DNA from: Verrucomicrobiota bacterium
GTDB taxonomy: Bacteria > Verrucomicrobiota > Verrucomicrobiia > Verrucomicrobiales > DEV007
Direction of reading: 5' to 3'
Assembly (NCBI GenBank): GCA_045046875.1
Contig: JASFYY010000085.1
Coordinates: 1-48,026 of the forward strand
Length of the DNA stretch: 48,026 bases
Position numbers and translations under genes: made by a program. Positions within the stretch are counted from its first letter, which is position 1. Every line of letters starts with the position of its first letter. Shown here piece by piece: positions 494 through 47,873 of the stretch. The notes below the pieces were generated by a model that did no database searches, had not been told where the DNA came from, and saw only the letters and a program-made list of their open reading frames with translations.

Positions 494-1678
494 TTACGGG
501 CTGAAAAGTTTTTTGATAGGACTTGCCAGTTTTTCAGGTGTGACCTTGGATACCCTGATATGCTGGCAGTTGTTGAATCTGGCAAAACGATGAACGGTTT
601 TGGCGAAGTGAGACATAAAATGATCAAGATCGATTGCCTTGGCCTCAAGGTGCATATGAATGAGTTCAAAATGGCCGGTTTTGCGGTGGGCTTTGCAATC
701 GACCCGGCCGAGCAAGCTATCTTGATAGAGGATGGGTAAGCAGAAATAACCAAACTGGCGTTTGGCTTTTGTGGTGTAACACTCCATCCGGTAGTCGAAT
801 GCAAATAATTGCTGCATGCGGTCCCGGTGAATGATGGCGTTATCGAAGGGGGACAAGAGGTGGACATTAGCCGTGGGGCGCTTTATTTTTCGCTCGAAAA
901 TATCTGGAGCGGCATAAACGGGAGGCATGCCAGCTATGGTGTATTTGTTTATCGATCCGTCTTCGATTTGTTGTTGTAACACTGTAGTGAGCGCCTGTCG
1001 CAGTGCGCGACCGGTTCTTAAATGGGTGAGTTGTCTGAGGCTGGTGAAACCATGGGCATTCAGCGAGGTGTTGATCAAGTATTCGGAAAACTCCTCCAGG
1101 GAGGGTTCGTGAGTATTGGTATCAGCGGGCAAAACTCTTTCTCTCAGGTCATACACTTTCTCCATGCCATCGCGACGGGTGATCATTAGATCGCCCTGCA
1201 TGAATAGCTTTACTAAGGCCCTCTTGGCGGGTTTCCAGTCCCACCATTTGCCGTTTTTGCCGGGGCTTGATTCAAAATGCCGGGCTTTCATCGGGCCTTC
1301 GCTACGAATGCGCGCAATGGCGTGAGACATATATTTCGCATCGGCATCAGCGTAATAAGGTGACTCGCCCCGTCTGATCGAGGCCATTTGTCGTAAGGCA
1401 AAACGATAATCTCGCATCGGCAGATAGGAGGCTGCGTGAAACCAATACTCAAAAGCCTGCCGTTCGTGAACTAACTGGTTCAGGTGATCCGGGTGGTAGT
1501 CGGGGATCCGGGTCCAGAGTGTGTGATGATGGGCGCGTTCAACCACCGACAGAGTATCGATCTGAATATATCCAAGGCGTTCCAAGGCACGCTGGGTTGC
1601 TTGAGATCCCTTGCCGAATGCTCGCGTGGTGCTAAGACCTTGATGAGATAGGGCGATACGGCGTAATTGTTGGAGCAT
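494..1678 (-). CDS. ycaQ: YcaQ/AlkZ-family (HTH_42) winged-helix DNA glycosylase, interstrand-crosslink repair
   Basis: QIDTLSVVERAHH (QxD catalytic motif), FEYWFHAASYLP, LLSPFDNAI, FDYRMECY, RQFGYFCLPILY, GRVDCKAHRK; 394 aa. Confidence 0.9.
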   Translation of the reverse strand: MLQQLRRIALSHQGLSTTRAFGKGSQATQRALERLGYIQIDTLSVVERAHHHTLWTRIPDYHPDHLNQLVHERQAFEYWFHAASYLPMRDYRFALRQMASIRRGESPYYADADAKYMSHAIARIRSEGPMKARHFESSPGKNGKWWDWKPAKRALVKLFMQGDLMITRRDGMEKVYDLRERVLPADTNTHEPSLEEFSEYLINTSLNAHGFTSLRQLTHLRTGRALRQALTTVLQQQIEDGSINKYTIAGMPPVYAAPDIFERKIKRPTANVHLLSPFDNAIIHRDRMQQLFAFDYRMECYTTKAKRQFGYFCLPILYQDSLLGRVDCKAHRKTGHFELIHMHLEAKAIDLDHFMSHFAKTVHRFARFNNCQHIRVSKVTPEKLASPIKKLFSP

Positions 1679-1729
1679 GATTTGGAGGTAGAGTTGTTAG
1701 AGTTAGCCGCTGGGCATGGCAAAAAGAAT

Positions 1730-1764
1730 TTTAACCACTGATTACACTGATAAACACTGATGGG
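1730..1764. repeat. Dispersed repeat unit, inverted relative to 359-394
   Basis: Reverse complement cccatcagtgtttatcagtgtaatcagtggttaaa is nearly identical to 359-394. Confidence 0.75.
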
Positions 1765-1859
1765 AGGAATGCGATGAGGCTTAAGAGATTGGTGATGATT
1801 TGACTCTGTTCGTCGGTCTTTGTTTTGTTGTGGCTGTAGTTTCATTTCTTGTGACTAAA

Positions 1860-1910
1860 ATGGTAGCGCAGCCTCCTGACACCCCTATGTCAGGAGGGTT
1901 TCGTTTTTTC
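1860..1910 (-). promoter_or_regulatory. Palindromic operator CCTCCTGACA-N6-TGTCAGGAGG (1872-1897) with -10 TACCAT; probable WYL-activated promoter upstream of ycaQ
   Basis: Perfect 10-bp arms. The minus strand reads TGTCAG-GAGGCTGCGC-TACCAT. Lies directly downstream of the WYL regulator gene. Confidence 0.7.
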
Positions 1911-1991
1911 AACTTTGTGCATTCTTGGCCGCCGAAGTCTGGACGGAGGAGGTTGGGTGAGACCTTTTTCTCTTTGGTTCAAAGTAGACTT

Positions 1992-2957
1992 TTAATCAGA
2001 ACCAGGATCGGGGTTTTGGTGGTGTTGCATGGTTTTTTCGGCGAGTGCGGCGAGTTTTTCGCGGAGGAGAGCGGGCTCGAGGATGCGGATTTGATCGGCC
2101 AAGCCCAGTAGCCAGGCGGCAATGTATCGCATATCTTCGCTGCCGTAGTTGAGCCGAACCCGGACCGTTTTGTCAGCAGTGGTTTGCTCGTCCATTAACA
2201 TGGGGCCCCAGAAACGGCGTGTGGTTTCGAGTAAATAGGCGGGCAGTTCGATCACCGCGACCCGATCGGGATCGGGGGCCATGCAGCGCTCGAAATATTC
2301 GCCGATATCAAAAGGGCGTGCAGCGGCCGTTTCGGGCAGGGCCTGGCATTGCTGAATACGATCAACCCGGAAGTCGCGGACGTCATCGCGCAGGCGGCAC
2401 CAGGCAAAGAGGTGCCAGTGATCCAGATAAAATACCAAGCCGAGCGGTTCGACGGTGCGTTGGGTTGTTTGATCGCGTGCCGCGCCATGATAGTGCAGGT
2501 GCAGCACCTGTTTTTGGGCAAGAGCCATCTGGATTTCACCGAGCGGCACGGTGTTTTTATTGGAGGAGCGGGTCTGCACCCGCATGGTTTTGCCCAGTCG
2601 TTCGATGCGATCCTGAAGATCCGAGGGCAGCACGGCGACGACCTTGCCCACCGCGGAGCGTGTGGCTTCGCGCATGGAGGCATCGGTCATGCTCTCGCTC
2701 AGCAGGCCACCGGTCACTAGCGCCAGAGCCTCATGCGGTGAAAACATCACCGGAGGCAGATGGTAGCTGCGCTTTGACAGGCTGTAACCCACGCCGGCCT
2801 CGCCAACAACCGGCACACCGGTTTCCGCCAAGGCAACAAGGTCGCGATAGACGGTGCGCTCAGTGATTCCAAAATGCTCGGCTAACTGGGCAGCAGTGAT
2901 CACACGGCGTGATTGCAGCAGCATCACCATGGCGAGCAGTCGATCGGTGCGGTTCAT
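1992..2957 (-). CDS. YafY-family transcriptional regulator (HTH_11 + WYL + WCX)
   Basis: MNRTDRLLAMVMLLQSRRVITAAQLAEHFGITERTVYRD N-terminal HTH; RTVEPLGLVFYLDHWHLFAWCRLRDDVRDFRVDRI WYL core. Confidence 0.95.
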   Translation of the reverse strand: MNRTDRLLAMVMLLQSRRVITAAQLAEHFGITERTVYRDLVALAETGVPVVGEAGVGYSLSKRSYHLPPVMFSPHEALALVTGGLLSESMTDASMREATRSAVGKVVAVLPSDLQDRIERLGKTMRVQTRSSNKNTVPLGEIQMALAQKQVLHLHYHGAARDQTTQRTVEPLGLVFYLDHWHLFAWCRLRDDVRDFRVDRIQQCQALPETAAARPFDIGEYFERCMAPDPDRVAVIELPAYLLETTRRFWGPMLMDEQTTADKTVRVRLNYGSEDMRYIAAWLLGLADQIRILEPALLREKLAALAEKTMQHHQNPDPGSD

Positions 2958-3514
2958 TCGTCTTCCTCCTCCGGGAGCAGATACTGATCGCCAAAGGGCA
3001 GCCAGGTATCTCTTTTGATTTCGGGGGCGTTGCTGCGCACGATGTTGAGCGTGGTTTGCAGCTCGACGACGGCGGTATTGATACGGGACTTGCTGATGTC
3101 CTCATCGGGGGAAATCGCGCGGCGCAGTTCGGCGCTGGTGTGGGGTTCGGCTTTGATCAAGGCAAACAGCTCGCGGGCGAGCGGTTTGCAGCTTGATACA
3201 GGGCGGTGATGTGCGGGGTAGTGTTCGTTTTGCAGATGATCCAGGCACATCAGCACGGCAAGCCCGCCTGGCAGTTTGCCGTAGAAAATCTCGTCGGGGA
3301 ACAGCGCGGGCAGCTCGTTTTTCCAGACCCAGATAGCTTCCACTTTTTTGCCCCAGCCTTTTTGGCCGGGTTGACGGCCTGGCAGATCGACGTTGTCCCA
3401 GAGGCTCGGCAGGGGTGAGCTATCAGAGCCAAAGATGAGGCAGGTTTTCACTTTCAAAACAAAGTCGTAAGCTTGTTCGAGAGTTTTAATTTTGGCAACG
3501 GCAGAGGCTTTCAT
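2954..3514 (-). CDS. Hypothetical protein, resembles small AlkZ-related winged-helix proteins; translationally coupled to the WYL gene
   Basis: PSLWD...IWVWKNELP...IFYGKL pattern and a C-terminal HTH-like segment (TSAELRRAI...RINTAVVELQ); 4-nt ATGA overlap with the WYL gene. Family assignment from memory of motifs only. Confidence 0.55.
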   Translation of the reverse strand: MKASAVAKIKTLEQAYDFVLKVKTCLIFGSDSSPLPSLWDNVDLPGRQPGQKGWGKKVEAIWVWKNELPALFPDEIFYGKLPGGLAVLMCLDHLQNEHYPAHHRPVSSCKPLARELFALIKAEPHTSAELRRAISPDEDISKSRINTAVVELQTTLNIVRSNAPEIKRDTWLPFGDQYLLPEEEDE

Positions 3515-4895: not shown

Positions 4896-4968
4896 GGGGG
4901 GCGTGCCTTGCACCACCAGTATCACGGACAGTTAATTTAGAATCAATTTTTGCGGATGTTACGTTTGC

Positions 4969-7900
4969 TTGATATATACTTGTGCAATTCTGAACAATAT
5001 TGATATTTTGAGTTCCATTCTTCCCAAAATCAAATCACTGCTTGAAGGCAAAGATGCTGAGGGGCTAAAAGTCTATCTTGAGGGGCTAAAAGCGACTGAA
5101 AAAGGCCCAGCATTTGAGCTGTTCCTAGAACTGCTTTACAACGGCAATGGTTACACGGCGATAAGGCAAGGTGGCAGAGGCGATTTAGGCGCGGACATTC
5201 TTTTATATGATTCTGCAAAAGAAGGCATCTACTGCATTATTCAGGCGAAGAACCATTCCTCTCCACTGAATTTTGACGACACAGTAAGTGAACTCAATAA
5301 GTTTGAATCAAAAGCTTCTGAAAATTACGATTGCCGCGAGTTTGAAATTATCTCTATGAACGGCTTTGTGGCTGAAGCGGCTAAACTGGGGCGCTTCAGA
5401 TTGAATCTCAGGGATTGGAGTTATGTTGAGGGTTTGATCGAAACATATGATCCTGACAATAAGTCCCAGCCTGTCATCCGGCTGCATTCGCATAACCAAG
5501 AGACTTTTGACGCCGCGATAATATCACTAAATACAGGGAGCCGAGTTGCCTGTATTCAAGCGACAGGCACAGGGAAAAGTTACGTGATTGCGGAAACGAT
5601 GAACCAGTTCCCCAAGGAAAAGAAACTGGTTATCGCTCCGTCAAACTACATCCTAAAACAGCAAATGGGGGTTGCACGTTGGTTGAATCGTAGCACCAAA
5701 TACATGACGTATGCCGCGGCCAAAAACCTTACTGCTTCTGATATCGAAAAGATGAATCCGGCACTTATTGTTCTGGATGAATTTCACAGAACAGGGGCTG
5801 ATGTCTGGGGAGCTGGTGTTGAAAAAATACTAAAACAATGCCCAGATGCCAAAGTGCTGGGAACAACGGCAACACCAATTCGCCATCTCGATGGAGAACG
5901 GGATATGTCTGATGAGCTATTCGACGAAGAAGCCGTAAACCTCCCGTTGGCTGAGGCTATCCAACGCCGTATCTTGCCATCTCCAAACTATGTTTCCTCA
6001 CTCTACACACTTAATGAAGAAGCAAACAATCTGCTGGAGAACCTCGCCAAAAGCAGTCTGTCAGATGATGAAAAGAAAAAGCTTAAGGGCGACATAGAAC
6101 AAGAAACAATAAACTGGGAGAAGTCTTCCGGTGTCCCTGAAATTCTTAAGAAGTATCTCAGCAACAGTAAAACCAATAAGTTTATTGTGTTTTGCAAGGA
6201 CAAGAAACATCTGGACGAATTGGAAGATGAAGTTCGTAAGTGGATTCGCAAGACTGGTCTATTTGAAGATCGGGAAACTTATCGGGTTTATTCAGGATAC
6301 AGAAAAAGCGATGCGAACCTTGAAGAGTTCCTAGCGGCAAAAGACAAAAAGACGGCTCATATCCTAATGGCCATCGACATGCTCAACGAGGGTATACACG
6401 CTCCCGATGTTGGTGCTGTTTTATTATTTAGACCCACTGAATCTCCGCGCATTTTTTATCAGCAAATTGGTCGCTGTCTTCAAGTCGGAACAGACGCTGA
6501 GCCAATTATTTTTGATTTTGTAAACAATTTCCAATCTATTAGAGTTGGAGATTTTCTTAATGACTTGAACGAAGCGGGTGAAAAAGAGAGAAAGCTTCGT
6601 GACCAGTTTGGGTTAAGTGCAGATTATTTGCCGAAGATACTTGTTCATGATGAATGTCTGGAAATATTGGAAACGTTTAAGGGAATTGATGAAAGGCTTG
6701 GTAGCTGGGAGATTCAATTTCAAGAGTTGGTGAGCTATAAAGAGGAATATGGGGATTGTTTGGTTCCTGGTAGTTGGGAAAACAAACAGTTGGCAAACTG
6801 GGTAGTAAACCAGCGAACGATCAAGAAAAAGGAGAAGCTTGATGGAGATAGAATCAAACGGCTAGATGAGCTGGGGTTTGCATGGGATACAATCGAGCTA
6901 GCGTGGGAGATTCGATTCAAAGAGTTGGTGGACTATAAAGAGGGGTATGGTGATTGCTTAGTGCCCCATTTCTGGAAAGAAAACCAGCAGTTGGGGAAAT
7001 GGGTCGCCAAACAGAGGGTAACCAGGAAAATAGGTAAGCTTGATGGGGATAAAATCAAGCAACTGGATGAGCTGGGGTTTGAGTGGGATTTGCTCCAACA
7101 AGCGTGGGAGATTCGGTTTCAAGAGTTGGTGAGCTACAAAGAGCAGAATGGTGATTGCTTAGTGCCCCATTTCTGGAAAGAAAACCAGCAGTTGGGAAAA
7201 TGGGTCGCCAAACAGAGGGCGAAAAGAAAAACGGGCAAGCTTGATGACGATAGAATCAAGCGGCTGAATGAAATCAGCTTTGCTTGGGATGGCATCAAGG
7301 AATATTGGGAACAGCTATTTCAAGAGTTAGCGGCCTATAAAGGTGAATATGGAGATTGCTTGGTTTTAAAAGGTTGGAAAAACAAACAATTGGCATCGTG
7401 GGTTAACAGACTTAGAGATTTTAATAAAAGGGGCAAGCTTGATGGCGATAAAATCAAGCGACTGGATGAGCTAGGGTTTGTCTGGGAGCCTGACAAACTA
7501 GCATGGAAAATTCGATTCCAAGAGTTAGGGGCCTATAAAGAGGAGCATGGCGATTGCTTAGTGCCGGCTCGTTGGGCAGAAAACAAACAATTGGCATCGT
7601 GGGTCAGTGTTCAGCGAACGATCAAGATAAAGGGAAATCTTGACGGTGATAAAATCAAACGGATGGATGAGCTTGGGTTTGTATGGGAGCCTAACGAAAA
7701 AGCATGGGATATTCGACTCCAAGAGTTGGTGAACTACAAAGAGGAGCATGGCGACTGCCTGGTTCCTCAACGTTGGGCAGAAAACAAACCACTGGCAACG
7801 TGGGTCGGCTCACAGCGAACTATCAAGAAAAAAGGGAAGCTTGATGGTGATAAAATCAAACGACTGGGTGAGCTTGGGTTTGTATGGGAACCCGACAAAC

Positions 7901-8100
7901 AAGCGTGGGAGGTTCGACTCCAAGAGTTGGTGCGCTACAAAGAGGAACATGGTAATTGTTTGGTTCCTGGTAGTTGGAAAAACAAATTATTGGTAACGTG
8001 GGTTAGCAATCAGCGAGCCTTCATGAAGAAGGGCAAACTTGGTGCGTTAAGAATCAAACGATTGGAGGAAATTGGGTTTGCCTGGGATGCTAAAAAATAG
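4969..8100 (+). CDS. Mrr-like restriction endonuclease + SF2 (DEAD/DEAH, ResIII-like) helicase + 7 helicase-associated (HA, PF03457) repeats
   Basis: GDLGADIL...IQAKN (PD-(D/E/Q)xK), QATGTGKS, LDEFHR, TATP, DMLNEG, QQIGR; seven WxxxFxEL..YK...GDCLVP...L..WV..QR...KL...IKRL.ELGF.W units. Start codon uncertain (TTG at 4969 or 5008). Confidence 0.9.
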   Translation: MIYTCAILNNIDILSSILPKIKSLLEGKDAEGLKVYLEGLKATEKGPAFELFLELLYNGNGYTAIRQGGRGDLGADILLYDSAKEGIYCIIQAKNHSSPLNFDDTVSELNKFESKASENYDCREFEIISMNGFVAEAAKLGRFRLNLRDWSYVEGLIETYDPDNKSQPVIRLHSHNQETFDAAIISLNTGSRVACIQATGTGKSYVIAETMNQFPKEKKLVIAPSNYILKQQMGVARWLNRSTKYMTYAAAKNLTASDIEKMNPALIVLDEFHRTGADVWGAGVEKILKQCPDAKVLGTTATPIRHLDGERDMSDELFDEEAVNLPLAEAIQRRILPSPNYVSSLYTLNEEANNLLENLAKSSLSDDEKKKLKGDIEQETINWEKSSGVPEILKKYLSNSKTNKFIVFCKDKKHLDELEDEVRKWIRKTGLFEDRETYRVYSGYRKSDANLEEFLAAKDKKTAHILMAIDMLNEGIHAPDVGAVLLFRPTESPRIFYQQIGRCLQVGTDAEPIIFDFVNNFQSIRVGDFLNDLNEAGEKERKLRDQFGLSADYLPKILVHDECLEILETFKGIDERLGSWEIQFQELVSYKEEYGDCLVPGSWENKQLANWVVNQRTIKKKEKLDGDRIKRLDELGFAWDTIELAWEIRFKELVDYKEGYGDCLVPHFWKENQQLGKWVAKQRVTRKIGKLDGDKIKQLDELGFEWDLLQQAWEIRFQELVSYKEQNGDCLVPHFWKENQQLGKWVAKQRAKRKTGKLDDDRIKRLNEISFAWDGIKEYWEQLFQELAAYKGEYGDCLVLKGWKNKQLASWVNRLRDFNKRGKLDGDKIKRLDELGFVWEPDKLAWKIRFQELGAYKEEHGDCLVPARWAENKQLASWVSVQRTIKIKGNLDGDKIKRMDELGFVWEPNEKAWDIRLQELVNYKEEHGDCLVPQRWAENKPLATWVGSQRTIKKKGKLDGDKIKRLGELGFVWEPDKQAWEVRLQELVRYKEEHGNCLVPGSWKNKLLVTWVSNQRAFMKKGKLGALRIKRLEEIGFAWDAKK
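6706..8090 (+). repeat. Intragenic tandem array of seven ~198-201-nt HA-domain units
   Basis: Repeats visible in protein and DNA; 6947-7018 vs 7148-7219 differ at 1 of 72 nt. Confidence 0.95.
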
Positions 8101-8120
8101 CCACACCCAATTTGACGGGC

Positions 8121-8144
8121 AAGCTGAGGTTGATGCCTCAGCTT
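8121..8144 (+). terminator. Hairpin after the helicase stop (possible terminator, no U-tail)
   Basis: aagctgagg-ttgatg-cctcagctt 9-bp stem, 20 nt after TAG. Confidence 0.4.
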
Positions 8145-8228
8145 ACGCAGACGGAAGCAGAAAAACAGATGCCGACAAGTGGGGAGTAATGGTGTGATCC
8201 AATATCAAAGGAAATAATGATGGTGGTG

Positions 8229-8630
8229 TCATTGTAAAATCTCCAGAGAATCACATACGATTTCCCATTCTTCGGATTTACCAGTTCCATGTAATAGATC
8301 GTTTACAAACTCTTCAAATTCGGAAAAAGGTTGCCAATCAGAATAACCTTCAATGAAATGAAACGTGGAGAAAAAGTCATTTCCCGTGGAGACAATAATT
8401 TTTTGCAAAGAAGCTGAAAATTGATCACTGGTTATATCTACATGCCAGTTGTTATCAATTTTAAGCCACACATGGCCTATTCCCTCATCATTAGAGTTGT
8501 TCAATGGAGTAGCCAGTATTTGATCAGCAGTGCATATGGAGCCATTTCCAATGAACACGTTCATGCGGTAATGATCGTATAATAATACGTAAGACAAATA
8601 TCATAACAACCCAGGACAAATTTTGGTATA
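8229..8630 (-). pseudogene. Probable truncated/frameshifted papain/transglutaminase-like (Cys-His-Asp) hypothetical protein
   Basis: GHVWL...VDITSDQF His/Asp motif in the 8229-8597 ORF; a Cys-containing segment (PKFVLGCYDI) lies just upstream in another frame. Confidence 0.35.
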
Positions 8631-9236
8631 ACTATCTTAACAAGATCCCGGTAGCCGCGATCTACAATGACGTGTCATCCGGGCTGACTTCTGAGTCTTT
8701 TTCTCCTTATCTGAAGACGTCCAAATGGCTAAGCTTGTATTTTGACGAATTCAAGCGAGGTATTTGACGGAGAGAAGTGCTTCTTGATCAATCCACCTGA
8801 TTTTGAGTTGATAGCTCTTGTGTTTTCAGGCGATTTAATTCTATCCATGTCTTCCGGTTTTCTATTGAACATTATCGTAGCGCGGTTGGTGAGTTCGGCC
8901 GTTGGATCAAAGTAGAAGAACACAGGTTAATCCCAAGTCAGAAAGAATTAAACACTGAAAAACGCCGACTGAAGAAACTGCGCATTCCCCCTCGCTGGGC
9001 TCAGGTCAGCACACCTTCGGGAACGGCCAACGCACAGCGAGGGGTAGTGCGGTCACCGAGCAACTTGACTCATCCTGTTTACACCTTAACCTGAATCGCA
9101 ATCTGTTCAACAAACCCGACCGGCTCTATTTTAAAGCTGAACAAGATGAAAGAGGCAAAGAAACTCCCTTCGTTTCAAATACCGTTTAATGAGGGCGTTT
9201 TGAATAAGATGTATTCTATTACACAATTACTAAAGA

Positions 9237-10169
9237 GTGACCAAAAAAGAAGAAATACATAAAATTCCTGAGTTGCCTGAAGAGATAATAGAAGCAGGTA
9301 AGAATGGGCAGCTTGTAATGTTTGTCGGAGCAGGTGCATCCATGATGCAGAACCTCCCCTCCTGGAATCAACTTGCAACAAAAGTGCTATATTCAATGCA
9401 GGCCAAAGGTTACATAACTTTTGCAGACATTGAGCAGCTCAGGAGTCTAGATGCTAGGAAACAGTTGTCCATTTCTAAATCAATTGCTGATTCGAATGGT
9501 GATAGAGTGGATTTAAGCACCCACCTTACTGGAGGAAGTCCAAATAAAGGTATTTACAAAATAATAAATAATATCGGGTGCGTCTGCGTTACAACAAACT
9601 ACGACTCCCTGTTAGCTCCTTGCATAGATGGGACAGATGATTTTGACGGCAGCACAGCTGCCAGATCTGTAAGAAGGGTATATCGAAGGGATGAGCTACT
9701 AGCGAACGTTTTGGATGAACCTGGAACAGTCATCCATCTTCACGGATCAATTGAGGACGAAGATAGTTTAATTTTCACAACAGAGCATTACTTGAGGCAC
9801 TATGACTCTGAAAGTGTGCAACATTTTTTAGGCTCACTCTTTGAACGTAAAACGGTCTTATTTCTAGGCTATGGCCTCGAAGAGGCTGAAATACTCGAGC
9901 ATATCTTGAGAAGAGGCATGGCAAGAGTTGGTAAGGAAAAAACGAGGTTTTCCATTCAAGCCTTCTACAAGTCGCAAGAGCCCTTGTATTTACAATTAAG
10001 AGAATACTACGAAAATACATTTGGCGTCCATTTAATAGGATTTAATCGAGATTATCAAGATTACAACCAGCTCGAAATAGTGATGAGGAAATGGGCAGAA
10101 AAAATCCAAATCAGAGAGCCTTCTTTAGTCGAGGATTTAAATGTAATGAAATCTGTTCTTAATAAATGA
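9237..10169 (+). CDS. SIR2_2-family (sirtuin-like) NADase, probable defence effector
   Basis: MFVGAGAS..NLPSW, TTNYDSLL, IHLHGSI, VLFLGYGL; catalytic Asn and His intact; GTG start. Confidence 0.9.
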   Translation: MTKKEEIHKIPELPEEIIEAGKNGQLVMFVGAGASMMQNLPSWNQLATKVLYSMQAKGYITFADIEQLRSLDARKQLSISKSIADSNGDRVDLSTHLTGGSPNKGIYKIINNIGCVCVTTNYDSLLAPCIDGTDDFDGSTAARSVRRVYRRDELLANVLDEPGTVIHLHGSIEDEDSLIFTTEHYLRHYDSESVQHFLGSLFERKTVLFLGYGLEEAEILEHILRRGMARVGKEKTRFSIQAFYKSQEPLYLQLREYYENTFGVHLIGFNRDYQDYNQLEIVMRKWAEKIQIREPSLVEDLNVMKSVLNK

Positions 10170-12985
10170 CCGCCCTCTCTACAGACGAACTAGACTTACT
10201 TGATCGCATCAAGAAAAAGCCTGAATTACAGCCTTTCTTCTTCAGAGATGCGAAGGGACTCAAGTGGTTCGACCACTTGATGGATGGCGGATATTTTGAT
10301 CCAAAAAACAACCCTGCCCCGATACCAACCAACGAAGGGAAATATGTAAAAATTTCCTATTGGCCGGTGGTTACATATTTGGTTAATAATAGCGCTGAAT
10401 TAGGAATTCCTGAGAATGAAAAGTATGCCAAGCAACTGCTTGATCTTATTCGTCAAGTTACTGAAAGTTCCAAAACTAATGAAATGAGTAATCATCGTAC
10501 TTGGTGGCAGTTTTCAATAATATTAGGTCAAATCCCAACTAATTTGCTAACAATAGATTATTTGGATTGTATAGATCATTGGCTGAACGACAAATACGAG
10601 AAAAACTTAATTGCTCAAGAAATTGGAGAAACGTGGGTTCGTCGCCTTTTGAAGATTAACAGCCCTCATGAACTATCTTTAGCCCTCAAATTGATCGAAT
10701 TGCTCTTCAAATTGACGTTCAAAGAACGGCAATTTGGTAATACAAGTGGTCTAGTTGCCCGATTTCGTTACAGCACCCATTCTGCCTATAAAATATCCAA
10801 ATCGATTTCAAGTTATGCAGGGAAAACTATAGGGATAAAAGTCGTTCAAGTCTTTATCATGCATCTTAAGCAATGTGCTGATAAGCTGAATTTAGAGCAG
10901 CACTCAAGCATTTGGCAGCCTTCCATTGGAAAGCATGAGCAAAATACCCATAAAGACGAACCCTATAATATACTTGTATACGCAAGCCGCGATTCATTGG
11001 CTGGATTTATAGAGAACTTTCCAAATGGTGCAGTTAGTCAAGTGGAGAGCCTGCTAAATGAAAAAATTCAAATCCTTGAAAGGATAGCTATCCATTCGAT
11101 TTGTGAAAATTTTACATTATTAAATGTACTGGTAAACCGCTTAATTGATAAACGGTATTTTACTGGCAATTACAGGCATGAAATGTGGAGGTTGCTAAAC
11201 CTGAAATATTTAGAGTTTGGTGACGAAGAGAGAGGTGAAATATTAAAAATAATCTCAGAAATTGAAATAGATAACGATGGCGAACGCAATGAAACAGCGA
11301 CGGCTTATCATAAAGCTATTTGGTATAGCGCAATAAAAGATCACGGAGTAAACGAGAAATTTAAATACAAAGAAAGTGTTAGTATTGCAGGCACTGAGCC
11401 GGAACACCCTGATTTTGCAGTACATTTCACCGCTTCAAGCTGGGGTGACTTGGAGCCTCCTATACCCATCGAAAAGCTTCGGCGCAGCTCAATCGATGAA
11501 TTATTGGAACTGTTAAACCAATATGAAGGCCCTGATAGCCCAGCGTTACCAGGGGCCAATGATTTGGCGAAAGCTTTAAAACAAATCATTAAAGAATCTC
11601 CTCTAGATTATTATACTGATCTTGATAAACTCGCTAATCTGAATCTCCCATTTATTTCTCATGTAATTTACGCTTTCAACGAGCTTTGGAGCGAAAGAGC
11701 AAAATTACCTTGGAATGACATTTGGCATCATGTCCTTGATTTTTGCCTGCAAGTCATTAAAAAAGACTCATTTTTTTATTCTGCAACCCCCGTTAACTCC
11801 AGTTATAGACTGGGAGCAAATAGGAGCAGTATAGTCTGTGGCATTGGCCGATTGCTCGAAGCGGCGACAAAATATGATGATAATGCCATAGATGAAAGTG
11901 AGCATGAATCAATTGAATCCATTCTTCAATACTTGCTGAATAATGTAGAAGGAAGAGAAATTTCCGATTCGGAAGATGCTGTATCAGTGTCAATAAACAC
12001 AGCCAAAGGCCAAACTATAATTGCTTTGATAAATTTAGCACTGCGCACTTGTCGTATTGAAGACAAGAAAAACAATAATGAGCACGTCAAGGCGTGGAAT
12101 CAATTTCAGCACTACTTCAACATCGAGTTAAAGGCCGGTAAATCGTCCCCTCCAGAGCATGAGTTCTCGACCCTAGTTACTCTTTATGCGGCTAATTTTT
12201 CTTATATGTCGAAAGAATGGGTAATGGAAAATCTTGAATCAATTTTCGACCGAAATGACGAATCGCGTTGGATTTGTGCAATGCGAGGATATTCTTATGT
12301 AGGGAATCCTCTGCCTGATATATTTTCTTTTCTACAATCTCGAGGTGATTTTGATAAAGCTTTAGATAATGGAGCGGTCAAAAATGATATACTTGAGCAT
12401 ATCATTGCCAAAGGAGCATTTGCATATCTAACAGGCTTAAGCTTGTTAGATGATGAAAAAAGCTTTGTGAGAAGTTTATTGGATAGAAACAAGGAGGCTG
12501 AGTTACATCATCTTATTACCTCCATTTCTAGATTCGGAAGAGAAGATGATATTAGTATAAGGGATAAAGTATATGCGCTTTGGCCACTGATCTTAAAGAA
12601 TACTAATATTTCAACTCAAGCAGAAAAAAAACTAGCTTCTAGATTGTGCAGTTTGACTAAGTATATTGATCGAATCGACGAAAAGAGAAAAGAGTGGTTG
12701 CTCCAAATTGCACCTTACGCAAATGAAGAATTTTTTTCATATGAGCTATTTGATAATCTTGCTAGACTCAGTGAGCGTCAACCAAGGGAGGTATGCCCAA
12801 TATGGCTAGAAATGCTAAAAACCATTTCTCCTGATTATTCAGAAGAAAATTTAAGGCAGCTATTCACTAACCTAATTAAAGATGGTAACGATGGGATACG
12901 AGACGCGAAAAATATTGCAAGTGAACATGTGAGATTAGGGGATGAGCGAGCAAACAACATCCTCAATGATCTTCTAGCAGTTTAG
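10166..12985 (+). CDS. Large, probably alpha-helical hypothetical protein coupled to SIR2 (candidate sensor/scaffold)
   Basis: 939-aa ORF with ATGA overlap on the SIR2 stop; N-terminal FF..A..LKWFDHL..GGYF.P..NP.P...YWP..YL motif; no Walker A seen. Confidence 0.8.
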   Translation: MTALSTDELDLLDRIKKKPELQPFFFRDAKGLKWFDHLMDGGYFDPKNNPAPIPTNEGKYVKISYWPVVTYLVNNSAELGIPENEKYAKQLLDLIRQVTESSKTNEMSNHRTWWQFSIILGQIPTNLLTIDYLDCIDHWLNDKYEKNLIAQEIGETWVRRLLKINSPHELSLALKLIELLFKLTFKERQFGNTSGLVARFRYSTHSAYKISKSISSYAGKTIGIKVVQVFIMHLKQCADKLNLEQHSSIWQPSIGKHEQNTHKDEPYNILVYASRDSLAGFIENFPNGAVSQVESLLNEKIQILERIAIHSICENFTLLNVLVNRLIDKRYFTGNYRHEMWRLLNLKYLEFGDEERGEILKIISEIEIDNDGERNETATAYHKAIWYSAIKDHGVNEKFKYKESVSIAGTEPEHPDFAVHFTASSWGDLEPPIPIEKLRRSSIDELLELLNQYEGPDSPALPGANDLAKALKQIIKESPLDYYTDLDKLANLNLPFISHVIYAFNELWSERAKLPWNDIWHHVLDFCLQVIKKDSFFYSATPVNSSYRLGANRSSIVCGIGRLLEAATKYDDNAIDESEHESIESILQYLLNNVEGREISDSEDAVSVSINTAKGQTIIALINLALRTCRIEDKKNNNEHVKAWNQFQHYFNIELKAGKSSPPEHEFSTLVTLYAANFSYMSKEWVMENLESIFDRNDESRWICAMRGYSYVGNPLPDIFSFLQSRGDFDKALDNGAVKNDILEHIIAKGAFAYLTGLSLLDDEKSFVRSLLDRNKEAELHHLITSISRFGREDDISIRDKVYALWPLILKNTNISTQAEKKLASRLCSLTKYIDRIDEKRKEWLLQIAPYANEEFFSYELFDNLARLSERQPREVCPIWLEMLKTISPDYSEENLRQLFTNLIKDGNDGIRDAKNIASEHVRLGDERANNILNDLLAV

Positions 12986-13099
12986 GGCTCATTCCAAACC
13001 GCTGCCGGCATTCGGTCGCGTATCCCGTTCCTTAGCCCCTTGCGGACACGCTTTATAATTCTAGCTTTAATATTAGTCAGCGTGCATGTTTTTAGCACC

Positions 13100-14861: not shown

Positions 14862-15470
14862 TCAGGGATTCAACTTCTTTAAATAATCTATCAAAGGCTG
14901 ATAATCGAAGTCATCCGCTCGCTTTAAAGCGGCGATGTATTGCTTCCGTTCATCGCTATTTACATTCAAGGTATCGCTCGCCCAGTTGATAGGTTTCACC
15001 TCAGTCAAACGTTTGAGCACAACGTCGCAGACCAATCGCGACCATCTTCCGTTGCCATTGTTGAAAGGGTGAACCCGAACCATGGCATGATGGTAGCTGG
15101 CGATAAAGGGTATCAGGTTCTCTTGATCATAAGTTTTCCATTTTTCATTGTAATTCATTGCCACACGTCCGAGTTCCATCGGAACCATTTCCGGAGCTAC
15201 ACCGATATTCGGTCTTACTCCTGTCTCCGAGCGCAGAGTACCGGCCCATTGCCACACTTGGTCGTACATTCGTTTATGCAGTTTTTCATAAAACTCCACT
15301 GTGAATAGATCTCCAAGGCGACCGCCTTCTATCCAGTCTTCTGCGCTGAGGATATTCAATGTCTCCGCCGCATTCAGTTGCTTGCGGGTGGTGATTTCAT
15401 CACGGAGTAAACCTGAAATGTCGTCCAGCGGTGTTGCTCCATCCGGCTGGTCTGTAATTTTGTCAGTCAT
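14862..15470 (-). CDS. Mobile mystery protein B (Fic domain)
   Basis: PDGATPLD N-terminus, VWQWAG, intact Fic motif HPFNNGNGRWSR, YIAALKRAD; start 15470 overlaps the upstream gene's stop. Confidence 0.9.
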   Translation of the reverse strand: MTDKITDQPDGATPLDDISGLLRDEITTRKQLNAAETLNILSAEDWIEGGRLGDLFTVEFYEKLHKRMYDQVWQWAGTLRSETGVRPNIGVAPEMVPMELGRVAMNYNEKWKTYDQENLIPFIASYHHAMVRVHPFNNGNGRWSRLVCDVVLKRLTEVKPINWASDTLNVNSDERKQYIAALKRADDFDYQPLIDYLKKLNP

Positions 15471-15930
15471 TCCAGAGGTCCGTCGGCCGCTCGACTTCAA
15501 ACTCTCTGGCTAAATCCAGAATGGCTTCAGATAAAGTGATGTCATTGACTGCCGACGCCTCAAGCGCTTGAGATTGATTGACTCGCTTGAGTTTTTGCTT
15601 TGCGCGACATAGTGACTGTTCAGATACCATCTTCGCAATAGGTTTTTTCGGGACTAACATATAAGCCAGTTCGCAACCAAGTGCATCCGCCGTATTCTGA
15701 AGGGTAGCGAGAGTGATGGCGCCCCTTAGCTCATTGCTTTCAAGTTCAGCCAGACTTTGCCGGGTGATGCCTACCCGCTTTGCTGCTTGAGTTTTATTCA
15801 TGCCAAGAGCTTCGCGGATAGCGGTCAACCAACCGTTTCTGGGCTTGTGTGGCACGTTGGAAGTCGCGATCACTTCATCGAGTTGTCTTGTCCTCTGACG
15901 GGCAGTTCTGGATTGTGCGGAGCTCGGCAT
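15463..15930 (-). CDS. Mobile mystery protein A (XRE HTH)
   Basis: PRNGWLTAIREALGM...AKRVGIT...LESNELRGAITLATL...ALGCELAYMLVP...QSQALE. Confidence 0.9.
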   Translation of the reverse strand: MPSSAQSRTARQRTRQLDEVIATSNVPHKPRNGWLTAIREALGMNKTQAAKRVGITRQSLAELESNELRGAITLATLQNTADALGCELAYMLVPKKPIAKMVSEQSLCRAKQKLKRVNQSQALEASAVNDITLSEAILDLAREFEVERPTDLWND

Positions 15931-16101: not shown

Positions 16102-16175
16102 TGGAGGCGAGGGCGGGAATCGAACCCGCGATAATGGTTTTGCAAACCATGGCCTTACCACTTGGCGACCTCGCC
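16102..16175 (-). tRNA. tRNA-Cys (GCA)
   Basis: Reverse complement GGCGAGGTCGCCAAGTGGTAAGGCCATGGTTTGCAAAACCATTATCGCGGGTTCGATTCCCGCCCTCGCCTCCA: cloverleaf, GCA anticodon, TTCGA T-loop, encoded CCA. Confidence 0.97.
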
Positions 16176-44804: not shown

Positions 44805-46541
44805 TTACAATTCGTCTAAAAATACCAGCTTATTTATTGTTTTTATGGAAAAAATAACTGGTAGGGCGGTGGCGAGAATGGTTAAGGTAAAAGCGCTCAA
44901 CACGGCGATCAAGGCATGGGAGTTGGCTAGGATCGAGTAAATGTGGGTGGTGGAGCCGGTTTTGATAAGGGAGATGTGGGCAAAAATAAGGCAGCCGATG
45001 AACGAGGCGACATAAGCGAAGCTGGTGATCAGGCAGAGCGTGCCGCCAAAACCGGAGACGATTTTGGCGGAGTTGCTTTCTTTTAAGTTGGGGAAGATGG
45101 CGCCAAAACCGACCGCGATGGCATTCAGTCCGATGCTGAGCAGGACGATGGCGGTGGCAAAAAAGGTGATATCACTTCTGGGTAGTTGCAGCATGTGGCC
45201 GGAGAGAATGAGGATGGCAAAGGTCGCACTGCCGGTGAAGAGGGTGCTGAGGATCAGTTTTTGGATGATGATGCGGGAGAGTTGGATCGGAGACATGACG
45301 AGGATCCAGAAGCGCCGTCCTTCGAGGCTGAACTGGGGGAATACAAAGCGGGTGGTCAGGGTGGATAGGGCGAGGGCGCAGACGCTCAGATTGAGAAAAG
45401 CGAACATTTGCGCTTCTTGTGAGTTGCTGCGGTCGTATTCCATGTGGCGCAGGCTGATGGCATAGAGTGAGAGCAAAGCGAAGATGATGAGGAATTGCAG
45501 CCATTGACCCGGTTCGCGCACAAAGCTGCGCAGATCCTTGAGGCTGATGGCGATCATCGGAGATTTGGGTAGTTTGAACCACCAGTTCAGCGAGTCGGGG
45601 GAATCCAGGTCTTTGAAGTTGCGTTTTCGTTGACGGGCGGCGGTGGCGGCGGCGTGTTGCAGGCTGCGGCTTCTTGCGGGAAAAAAGTAATATTTGGCTA
45701 ACCACGAGGCGAGCAACAAGACCATCAAGGCGTTGCTGTATAACAAGGATACGTTGAGCGGATCCTTGCTGAGTCGCCAGGGATGTGTCCAGTCGATGGT
45801 AGATTTGGCCAGCCAGGTCGAGGGCAGCAGAGGGGAGGTGCTGATGTCAGTATGTCGCAAGACGAGTTGCAGGGTTAATGCGGCATTGAGGCCGGTTTTT
45901 TCGCTGAGTTCTTTATCCGACTGGTAGGTTTTCAGCGCAGAGTATCCGCCGATCAGGGCAATGATGATGGTGGCGTAGATGAGGTGGGATCGCCGAAACC
46001 AGCGCACGGTGATCAGCAGAAAGGTGATGGAGAGGCCGGTGCTGAGGATGACAAAAGGGATCATCGCACTGGCTGTTTTGAGATAAAAACCCAGGCCGAC
46101 ATCGCGGTGACGGGCTATGGCAATCAATAGCGGTGCGGTGATGAACAGCAGTCCCCAACTGGAAAAAAGGGAGGCTTCCAGACATTTCCACAAACACACC
46201 ACCCGGTGACTGAGGGGCAGGGTGAGCATCCACGAGGTTTCTTTGCTGCGGAAGAGGGCGATGTAACTTGCGACGCCAGCGGAGAAGGCCAGCATCAGGA
46301 AAAAGCAGAAAAAAATCAGGTGAATGATGCGGTCGGTCAGCAGGTCGCCGGCGGCGGGCAGGGTGGAGATGTATTTCAACCCCCGGCTGAAAATGACGTA
46401 GGCGGTGATGCTGTAGAGAATGAGGAACAGGCCGATGGTGGCACTCATCAACCGTGAGCGGCTGACATGGGCGACCAGGCGGTGGCGCAAAATCTTGATA
46501 TGGACTTTGCACAGCAGGCGCAGTTGTTCGAACTCGCTCAC
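44805..46541 (-). CDS. Putative ABC-2-type transporter permease
   Basis: About 12-14 TM segments, WMLTLPL, KDLRSFVREPGQWLQ, FPQFSLEGRRFWIL; GTGA overlap with the methyltransferase. Confidence 0.8.
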   Translation of the reverse strand: MSEFEQLRLLCKVHIKILRHRLVAHVSRSRLMSATIGLFLILYSITAYVIFSRGLKYISTLPAAGDLLTDRIIHLIFFCFFLMLAFSAGVASYIALFRSKETSWMLTLPLSHRVVCLWKCLEASLFSSWGLLFITAPLLIAIARHRDVGLGFYLKTASAMIPFVILSTGLSITFLLITVRWFRRSHLIYATIIIALIGGYSALKTYQSDKELSEKTGLNAALTLQLVLRHTDISTSPLLPSTWLAKSTIDWTHPWRLSKDPLNVSLLYSNALMVLLLASWLAKYYFFPARSRSLQHAAATAARQRKRNFKDLDSPDSLNWWFKLPKSPMIAISLKDLRSFVREPGQWLQFLIIFALLSLYAISLRHMEYDRSNSQEAQMFAFLNLSVCALALSTLTTRFVFPQFSLEGRRFWILVMSPIQLSRIIIQKLILSTLFTGSATFAILILSGHMLQLPRSDITFFATAIVLLSIGLNAIAVGFGAIFPNLKESNSAKIVSGFGGTLCLITSFAYVASFIGCLIFAHISLIKTGSTTHIYSILANSHALIAVLSAFTLTILATALPVIFSIKTINKLVFLDEL

Positions 46542-47707
46542 CAGGCAGCCATTTTTTGAAAGATAAACCCTTTGAGGTATTCAGACTCGGGGATGAGAGG
46601 AAGCACGGGGTGATCCTGTCGTTGGGAGTGGGACGAGAGCAAACGCAGGCTGGATTTGGCGTCCACGGCGGCGTCACAAATGGTATCGAGGAACATCTGC
46701 CGATTGACGTGATGCGAACAGCAGAAAGTGGCGAGGATGCCATCTTTATCTAATAACTTCAGGGCGCGCAGATGGATTTCCTTGTAACCGCGCATGGCGT
46801 CTTTCACCGATTTGCGATTGCGGGTGAAGGACGGTGGATCGAGAATGATCAGATCGTAGGGCGGGGTTTCGCTGTCGGTGGTTTTGAGAAAATCAAAGAC
46901 GTTGGCGTTGGTGAACTCAATATCGAGTTGGTTATTGCTCGCATTTTTCTGCGCGCAGTCGAGTGCGGTTTCGCTGCTGTCGATGGCTTGCACCGATTGT
47001 GCTCCACTGCGGGCGCAATGCAGGGCAAAACCGGCTTCGTTGCAAAAGCAGTCCAGCACGCGTCGACCTTTGGCCAGATCACCAACCGCTTGGTAGTTGT
47101 CGAATTGATCGAGGTAGAGTCCGGTTTTGTGCCCGTCGAGTGGATCCACCGCAAAGGCGATGCCCTGCACGGTGACTTGAAAAATACCGGGAGCTTCACC
47201 GTAGAGGAGGCCTTTTTCGAGCGGCAGGCCTTCGGCTTTGCGGATCGGGCTGTCGTTGCGTTCGATGATAGATTTAGGTGAAAAAATCTGCACCAGGGCC
47301 TGGGTGATCAGATCTTTGCGCTGATCCATGGCGAGCGTCAGGGTTTGCAGCACCAGGTGGTCGCCGTAGCGATCGATGATGACTCCCGGCAGGCCGTCAC
47401 TTTCGCTCCAGGTCAGACGGTAAACGTCGTCGTCAAAAGACATGCTGTTGCGCAGGGCCAAGGCGCGTTCGAAACGACGGATGAAAAAATCGTGATCGAG
47501 TTTTTGAGTGCGGCGGGAAAAACGACGCGCAATGATTTGCGATTCGGGATTGTAGATGGCGGTGCCAAGTTTGCGGTCTTTGAAGTCTTTGACGGAAATG
47601 ACTTCGCCGGGTTCGGGTTTGCCGAAAGTTTTATGAACTTCGCTGGTGTAGACCCAGTCGTGTCCGTGAAAGATGCGTGATCTGGGTTTGACGATGATTC
47701 CTGCCAT
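46538..47707 (-). CDS. rlmI: Class I SAM-dependent rRNA methyltransferase, RlmI/RlmK family (PUA domain)
   Basis: GHDWVY, SESDGLPGVIIDRY, GHKTGLYLDQ, VLDCFC..AGF, LIILDPPSF, DHP...PESEYLKG. Confidence 0.85.
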   Translation of the reverse strand: MAGIIVKPRSRIFHGHDWVYTSEVHKTFGKPEPGEVISVKDFKDRKLGTAIYNPESQIIARRFSRRTQKLDHDFFIRRFERALALRNSMSFDDDVYRLTWSESDGLPGVIIDRYGDHLVLQTLTLAMDQRKDLITQALVQIFSPKSIIERNDSPIRKAEGLPLEKGLLYGEAPGIFQVTVQGIAFAVDPLDGHKTGLYLDQFDNYQAVGDLAKGRRVLDCFCNEAGFALHCARSGAQSVQAIDSSETALDCAQKNASNNQLDIEFTNANVFDFLKTTDSETPPYDLIILDPPSFTRNRKSVKDAMRGYKEIHLRALKLLDKDGILATFCCSHHVNRQMFLDTICDAAVDAKSSLRLLSSHSQRQDHPVLPLIPESEYLKGFIFQKMAAW

Positions 47708-47873
47708 GATATTAAAAAAGTTATTTAATTGAGTGAGTGCTGCGAGTTGAGACTGCGCAGATGCCAGTGCTGACACGCTAGATGATAAATTTCGTCAGAC
47801 GCTGGCGGTCAAATTTGCACTCGTCTAGAGTAGCGGAGTTTGGAGCGTTTTACCATGCGAAAGTTTTTCCAAT

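Follow-up and report, generated by a model that had tools for sequence, protein, structure and literature searches.

The DNA analysed here, hereafter the window, spans positions 1 to 48,026 of contig JASFYY010000085.1 from a Verrucomicrobiota bacterium (GenBank assembly GCA_045046875.1), and carries on its forward strand a gene that fuses a predicted nuclease, a superfamily 2 (SF2) ATPase and seven tandem HA units. Read from the first TTG, its open reading frame (ORF; 4969-8100, +) encodes 1043 aa; the deposited gene call starts instead at TTG 5008 (residue 14), where the N-termini of homologues align as well. The original prediction, made from the DNA letters of this locus, saw an Mrr-type nuclease, an SF2 motor and seven HA units in one polypeptide, and Pfam agrees: the ORF matches Mrr_cat at residues 45-140 (25.9 bits, cut-off 21), ResIII, DEAD and Helicase_C at 171-505, and HA seven times (E 7e-130). 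These seven stretches of HA (PF03457), in tandem on the SF2 helicase, score 423.9 bits against a gathering cut-off of 28.4. The AlphaFold2 model of the protein reached a predicted local distance difference test score (pLDDT) of 86.6 and a predicted template modelling score (pTM) of 0.56. No full-length match to a catalogued defence system was found in PADLOC-DB 2.0 or NCBIfam 20: PADLOC gave only partial matches in the ATPase region (best E 1.5e-21), and all NCBIfam scores for the gene fell far under cut-off. Judging by the sequences of its relatives, the HA repeats probably choose the target of the enzyme.

The nuclease domain carries the motif I Glu (E50), the motif II DxxxD (D72, D76) and the motif III QxK (Q92, K94) of the Mrr family. 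Their equivalents in the restriction enzyme LlaGI are E38, D74, D78, Q92 and K94; passages of PMC2790908 describe D74, D78 and K94 as essential. Across 113 family cores (120 listed matches minus 7 that are N-terminally partial), D72, D76, Q92 and K94 are found in 98, 102, 98 and 98, respectively, and E50 in 86%. Every one of the 113 has the same key residues in Walker A, Walker B (DExH), motif III and motif V, so that the earlier description of a complete SF2 helicase stands for these motifs; it fails at motif VI, as discussed below. The top Foldseek match of the model is LlaBIII (4xqk; E 7e-15, with a low TM-score), the closest sequence match in the PDB is SauUSI (7clg), and the ATPase shares 27% identity across 349 aa with a SauUSI-like protein encoded near one of the relatives.

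The seven HA units are 66-67 aa long and 64-81% identical to each other at the DNA level. The original prediction regarded them as mosaic on the strength of four shared tracts, all of which do occur at the pairs of units it named. Only the tract common to units 2 and 3 stands out from chance, with 71 of 72 nucleotides identical inside it against 92 of 129 outside (p=0.0001 in a codon-shuffled maximum-segment test, or 0.002 after correction for 21 pairs); a plain longest-run test on the same pair gave p=0.0002 with shuffled sites and p=0.01 with shuffled codons. The motifs shared by units 1/7, 4/5 and 5/6 failed correction (p=0.02, 0.07 and 0.94, respectively). Neighbour-site incompatibility calculated across all units (p=0.0006 by site shuffle, 0.007 by codon shuffle) nevertheless indicates mosaicism of the complete array.

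Exchange on a larger scale is seen among the relatives. The 120 proteins, some of which are partial, have between 1 and 14 HA units. With cluster members added, a hypervariable sister clade comprises 31 proteins (the named ones are labelled Akkermansiaceae or simply “bacterium”), whose cores are ~73-82% identical to that of the window enzyme. Core identity within this clade is 88.8-100% (median 94.7%), and yet the 31 proteins carry 22 array types, their 202 units form 116 families at 80% identity, and mean best-unit identity is below 70% in 94% of the 465 protein pairs. Blocks of 3-5 units are shared between otherwise different arrays (P0004 and the P0013 group have five unit families in common, P0005/P0139 four and P0011/P0035 three), and identical arrays recur across separate records, which argues against misassembly. 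In the five pairs displayed, the shared sequence extends across the connector into unit 1, where it takes in helix 1 and stops at or near GDCLV(P), and P0002 and P0130 have 5 differences in residues 1-565. Crossovers therefore use the conserved scaffold. Taken together, the relatives' sequences strongly support a swappable array, and the recombination that the original prediction proposed for the array is upheld by this allelic exchange on near-constant cores. The units of the window enzyme have no match above 75% to any other unit. Repeat order, which the original prediction expected to vary, is indeed free in the Akkermansiaceae-labelled clade, but is fixed, together with unit number, in a second clade of 13 proteins with 11 units each.

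Within the units (890 compared), variability is among the highest at positions 23, 24, 33, 36, 37, 40 and 41, which flank the conserved W34, V35, Q38 and R39. The loop after GDCLV and the residues after WV, the two patches to which variation had been ascribed, thus vary as described, but this account was incomplete, as positions 33, 40 and 41 vary too. When 49 distant proteins are considered alone, positions 23, 33, 36, 37, 40 and 41 are the top six in variability and position 24 is ninth. Judging from their helical spacing (i, i+3, i+4, i+7, i+8), we infer that the variable sites of helix 2, as placed by the models, share one face. Acidic residues are scarce at the variable sites (7.8%, compared with 34.6% for the other outward positions), and the unit's net charge (+3.8) resides in helix 2; this basic, acid-poor helix is consistent with the nucleic-acid binding proposed earlier.

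To compare rates of change, we picked 13 outward control sites from the helix pattern. Between units of the shuffling clade and its close kin that share 80% identity or more, 80 substitutions fell on the 7 variable sites against 73 on the 13 control sites (p=9e-6), whereas the fixed-order clade showed the reverse ratio (139 on 7 against 393 on 13). In the latter clade, sites 23, 36, 37, 40 and 41 differ at frequencies of 0.85-0.93 between paralogous units and 0.12-0.22 between orthologous ones; the orthologous mean for these five sites is 0.215 against 0.383 for the controls (Wilcoxon p=0.0098, n=11), and p=0.014 results when 33 replaces 23. Because the sites diversify in one lineage and stay fixed in another, they bear the signature of specificity-determining residues, and these contrasting rates support selection on the variable face. 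A small two-residue code of the transcription activator-like (TAL) effector (TALE) type is not supported: 640 dereplicated units display 189 different pairs at the two post-WV sites (gaps counted) and 631 five-residue patterns, and the units are 66-67 aa long. The label “TALE-like” in its strict sense was accordingly dropped, as the variable alphabet is too large and the unit fold matches 2KTA only. The pattern looks like multi-residue reading by each unit instead.

What the array binds can be judged only indirectly. Modelled alone, a single HA unit is a three-helix fold. The only structure it matches, 2KTA, comes from a paper (Mills et al. 2013, referenced in PMC12191111) said to report DNA binding by HA in its title. 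In distant relatives, the HA units are replaced by helix-turn-helix (HTH) repeats or by Myb-like repeats, the latter above the Pfam cut-off in 4 of the 14 proteins scanned. HA domains are also present on TniQ, a protein that picks target sites with its C-terminal domains (passages and a legend of bioRxiv 10.1101/2025.07.27.667033); passages of 10.1101/2024.11.13.623437, which call for further study, and a legend of PMC11406308 place HA on TniQ too. Streptomyces TtrA is described as having tandem HA domains and a role in telomere transfer. The basic, acid-poor helix, the Myb-like and HTH substitutions and the presence of HA on TniQ point indirectly to DNA as the ligand. In our literature search, which left subscription journals largely outside, no Mrr-ATPase-HA enzyme, allelic array exchange or HA specificity residues were described, and the available passages of papers on TtrA, TniQ and phospholipase D (PLD) nucleases name HA merely as a possible DNA-binding module. 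Among the relatives with other tails, we observed related ATPases with tandem Myb-like repeats and no HA at L107:8022-12478, L018:7001-9310 and L009:6962-8929 (L107 is a viral contig on which two Myb-like-repeat ATPase genes are consecutive), and a same-family Mrr-ATPase at L027:9923-13171 whose 520-aa tail has no Pfam match and contains a different, W...RQxK-type repeat.

The gene lies in a low-GC islet, the features of which are listed with those of the gene in Table 1. In a genome of the same genus (G094), the site of the islet is occupied by 141 bp, with flanks matching those of the window at 94% and 86%, and the Dsr1-like pair in an islet absent from G094 fits the defence setting that had been suggested. 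This pair (9237-12985) consists of the SIR2 gene and a 939-aa gene with a 4-nt overlap, and represents either a natural split or a frameshift. No recombinase or terminal repeat was seen in the islet by Pfam and repeat scan. As the original prediction held for its vicinity, no DNA methyltransferase was detected among the 33 window ORFs scanned; the sole methyltransferase of the window is a PUA-containing, rRNA-type enzyme (46538-47776). Also observed were an intergenic inverted repeat before the SIR2 gene (8981-9051; 20 nt with a 31-nt loop), an AlkZ-like glycosylase, a WYL regulator and an AlkZ-related gene just upstream of the islet (494-3514) and, downstream of it, a Fic/HTH pair (14862-15930) and a tRNA-Cys (16102-16175).

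Table 1. Coordinates of the nuclease-ATPase-HA gene, its parts and the surrounding islet in the window.
Feature	Position	Strand	Remarks
Low-GC defence islet	4898..13099	.	8.2 kb; 41.4% GC against 50.5% and 51.8% in the flanks
Nuclease-ATPase-HA-array gene	5008..8100	+	1030 aa; frame open from TTG 4969
Mrr-family PD-(D/E)xK nuclease	5008..5448	+	E50, D72, D76, Q92, K94 (ORF numbering); Pfam Mrr_cat
SF2 ATPase of the ResIII/SauUSI/Type ISP kind	5479..6537	+	Walker A QATGTGKS, Walker B DEFH, motif III TAT, motif VI QQIGRCLQ
Helical segment, putative connector of ATPase to array	6538..6702	+	Model helices 514-533 and 551-563 of P0001; R544 conserved
HA unit 1	6703..6900	+	Helix 1-GDCLV scaffold is the end of the sequence shared between alleles
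HA unit 2	6901..7101	+	Unit delimitation
Conversion/duplication tract, loop and helix 2 of unit 2	6947..7018	+	71/72 identical to 7148-7219
HA unit 3	7102..7302	+	Unit delimitation
Second copy of the tract, unit 3	7148..7219	+	71/72 identical to 6947-7018
HA unit 4	7303..7500	+	WVNRLR, without the usual Q
HA unit 5	7501..7701	+	Unit delimitation
HA unit 6	7702..7902	+	Modelled alone: three helices, matches 2KTA
HA unit 7, C-terminal	7903..8097	+	Unit delimitation
122-aa ORF	8229..8597	-	No Pfam, PADLOC or NCBIfam match; Atlas gives hypothetical clusters only
SIR2 gene, N-terminal part of split Dsr1-like protein	9237..10169	+	PADLOC Dsr1 profile 3-302, E 7e-56
C-terminal part of split Dsr1-like protein	10166..12985	+	PADLOC Dsr1 profile 311-1201, E 2e-116

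The nuclease-ATPase-HA family accounts for 1655 matches among the 7998 candidates scored, and a genome scan gave at least 557 confirmed stretches. Its distribution is patchy, with matches in only 2 of the 134 genomes of the host family (own genome included) and in none of the 5 others of the genus. At 25 related loci we scanned about three genes to either side (126 proteins, being 128 listed minus 4 gene fragments plus 2 added; 45 of them also in PADLOC). Ten loci have a defence-system neighbour, a count given without a background rate: GmrSD twice, Mrr, a McrBC-like system, two fused restriction-modification (R-M) enzymes, DRT3 with a Type IV enzyme, and three PADLOC candidates. A PIN or Fic gene is the neighbour at two further loci. 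Neither a conserved partner gene nor a cognate methylase was found across the 25 loci, and the methyltransferase-bearing neighbours at two of them are both self-contained fused R-M enzymes. Several individual loci showed further peculiarities. Close relatives at L037:833-2484 and L002 (94% identical over the matched stretch) are shortened, the former being followed by an integrase-core (insertion sequence-type) gene with MazG and McrBC-like genes adjoining; three family copies (L040, L041 and L042) lie on one chromosome, two of them fragmented and one without HA units; and a 1073-aa ORF with a Pfam RdRP match (L008:2138-5356; E 6.5e-17) directly follows a helicase-HA gene, with an ORF of similar size but no Pfam match at L018.

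Our tentative reading, which we rate a little short of an even chance, is that the gene encodes a single-chain, methylase-free and ATP-dependent restriction-like enzyme of Type ISP/SauUSI-like build, directed against phages or mobile DNA by a recombining, DNA-reading array. The array would bind double-stranded DNA, with each unit reading a few bases through the loop (23 and 24) and through helix 2, whose basic face comprises positions 33, 36, 37, 40 and 41, in the fashion of a zinc-finger or Myb array. Binding would then switch on the SF2 ATPase and license the N-terminal Mrr nuclease, as homology to Type ISP enzymes and SauUSI suggests; coupling of target binding to the ATPase in Type ISP enzymes is treated in passages of PMC7049714. 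Specificity would be renewed through homologous recombination in the conserved scaffold, for which the sequences present exchanges of whole arrays, of blocks and of single loop-helix cassettes. No host methylase would be required if the multi-unit target were long enough to be absent from the host's own genome, which is the weakest step of the scheme. We consider it rather doubtful that, beyond this, each unit reads a short DNA word near-independently, so that reshuffled units and a long composite site replace methylation in telling self from non-self.

Several observations weigh against this restriction reading. The SF2 motif VI consensus is QxxGRxxR, with both arginines. The window enzyme has QQIGRCLQ, without the last Arg; this residue is not among the four commonest at its column in the 113 cores, and of the 117 helicase ORFs at the loci retrieved a single one has it, which we infer to be the SauUSI-like neighbour protein. 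Because the loss is family-wide, processive translocation is uncertain. Shuffling must be lineage-specific given the fixed-order clade, in which the test on orthologous units weakens to p=0.054 when all seven sites are used, and the p-values for substitutions and divergence are overstated, since the sequences are related. At 15 of the 25 loci, the roughly three genes scanned on either side include none that is recognisable as part of a defence system, again without a background rate. The 50 fold matches listed for the unit contain no homeodomain, Myb or TALE link (a permuted helix order would be undetectable), and a structure search found no solved HA-DNA complex. Random long specificities would also rarely match a phage, and no route of target acquisition is apparent. 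Lastly, the genes around nuclease-less helicase-HA relatives from the gut are of another kind. In 24 loci (L052-L097) hand-picked from 49 of Clostridia type (L050-L098), with 67 of the 116 listed neighbours scanned, polysaccharide-synthesis genes are among the first two downstream in 20, with PIG-L and 3HCDH in two others and NusG in one, and the gene upstream is a tyrosine recombinase in 11 of the 19 scanned and a resolvase in one. Our literature search found no account of this arrangement.

These gut neighbourhoods are the strongest counter-observation and, together with the HA arrays of TtrA, suggest that the scaffold may serve mobile elements. The enzyme would then be an accessory motor resembling TtrA. 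Its array would tether the ATPase to sites of the element itself, and vary along with them, so that the element can be transferred, excised or inverted, and the nuclease would be optional; resolvase genes within three genes at 4 nuclease-bearing Bacillaceae loci fit this, as do passages on tandem HA in telomere transfer by TtrA. We hold it to be quite unlikely, as the islet has no recombinase, the nuclease residues are retained in 86-90% of the 113 cores, and the replacement of entire arrays on cores that are 95-99% identical would better fit an arms race. Modification-dependent restriction of the Type IV sort, in which the array reads modified bases on phage DNA with some sequence context, is unlikely as well, even though it would explain the missing methylase and an Mrr-family nuclease fits it. 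The resemblance to the SauUSI-like protein, the partial PADLOC matches to type IV systems, the GmrSD genes next to two loci and the listing of PLD nuclease-HA fusions among modification-sensing modules in passages of PMC12191111 speak for such an enzyme. Against these stand the 116 unit families of one clade, far exceeding the number of known base modifications, the lack of an SRA, EVE or PUA domain in the enzyme by Pfam, and the occurrence of HA on TniQ, which suggests ordinary DNA sites as ligand.

Hypervariable-face repeat arrays are typical of protein-sensing immune receptors, and the array could instead sense a phage protein and free the nuclease on host DNA in abortive infection. The Dsr1-like neighbour would suit such a receptor, and a methylase would be unnecessary, but the basic, acid-poor variable helix, the DNA-binding repeats that replace the array in relatives and the HA DNA binding that the title of Mills et al. 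reportedly announces make it improbable. An equally low probability attaches to the array being a non-specific DNA clamp whose diversity reflects neutral drift and tandem-repeat slippage. The range in unit number would follow naturally, outward helix positions vary in any protein, and pN/pS (nonsynonymous against synonymous differences) at the variable sites of the seven window units is ~1 (0.574/0.554, uncorrected; 0.30 elsewhere) and not above it, which is a further point against diversifying specificity. Neutrality is, however, at odds with the behaviour of the variable sites, which one clade conserves among its orthologous units and another changes at about twice the rate of other outward sites; nor can drift bring units down to 50-60% identity when the core is 99% identical.

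HA repeats are common, and the literature that we found contains only passing mentions of their function. The natural allelic series of 22 arrays on a near-constant enzyme, together with candidate specificity residues and a built-in nuclease read-out, makes modular reading by HA testable. If true, it would explain how a restriction enzyme lives without a methylase, would bear on targeting by HA-bearing TniQ and TtrA, and would add to R-M and RNA guides a third route of targeted bacterial immunity, along with a new and programmable DNA-reading scaffold of which hundreds of natural variants exist.

Compared with known systems, the window enzyme would work like a Type ISP enzyme or SauUSI, while being a member of neither. 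With Type ISP enzymes such as LlaGI and LlaBIII it shares an N-terminal Mrr nuclease (E/D/D/Q/K), an SF2 ATPase and a C-terminal specificity module in a single polypeptide. Unlike them, it has the HA array in place of the fused adenine methyltransferase and target-recognition domain (Pfam detected neither N6_Mtase nor ISP_coupler nor Type_ISP_C, and connector and HA units make up all that follows the ATPase), and its motif VI lacks the last Arg. SauUSI, its nearest ATPase by sequence among solved structures, has the same nuclease-ATPase-sensor order and is likewise methylase-free, but differs in having a PLD rather than an Mrr nuclease and a single modification-reading sensor rather than an HA array. 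TAL effector repeats are ~34 aa long, with a variable pair of residues and a small alphabet. The HA array resembles TAL effectors, C2H2 zinc fingers and Type I HsdS in its near-identical tandem scaffold, localised hypervariable residues and recombination via conserved segments, and differs from them in its 66-67-aa three-helix unit with five to seven variable residues and in its natural fusion to a nuclease and a motor. Zinc-finger-like reading, with several bases per unit, would thus be a better analogy than TALE.

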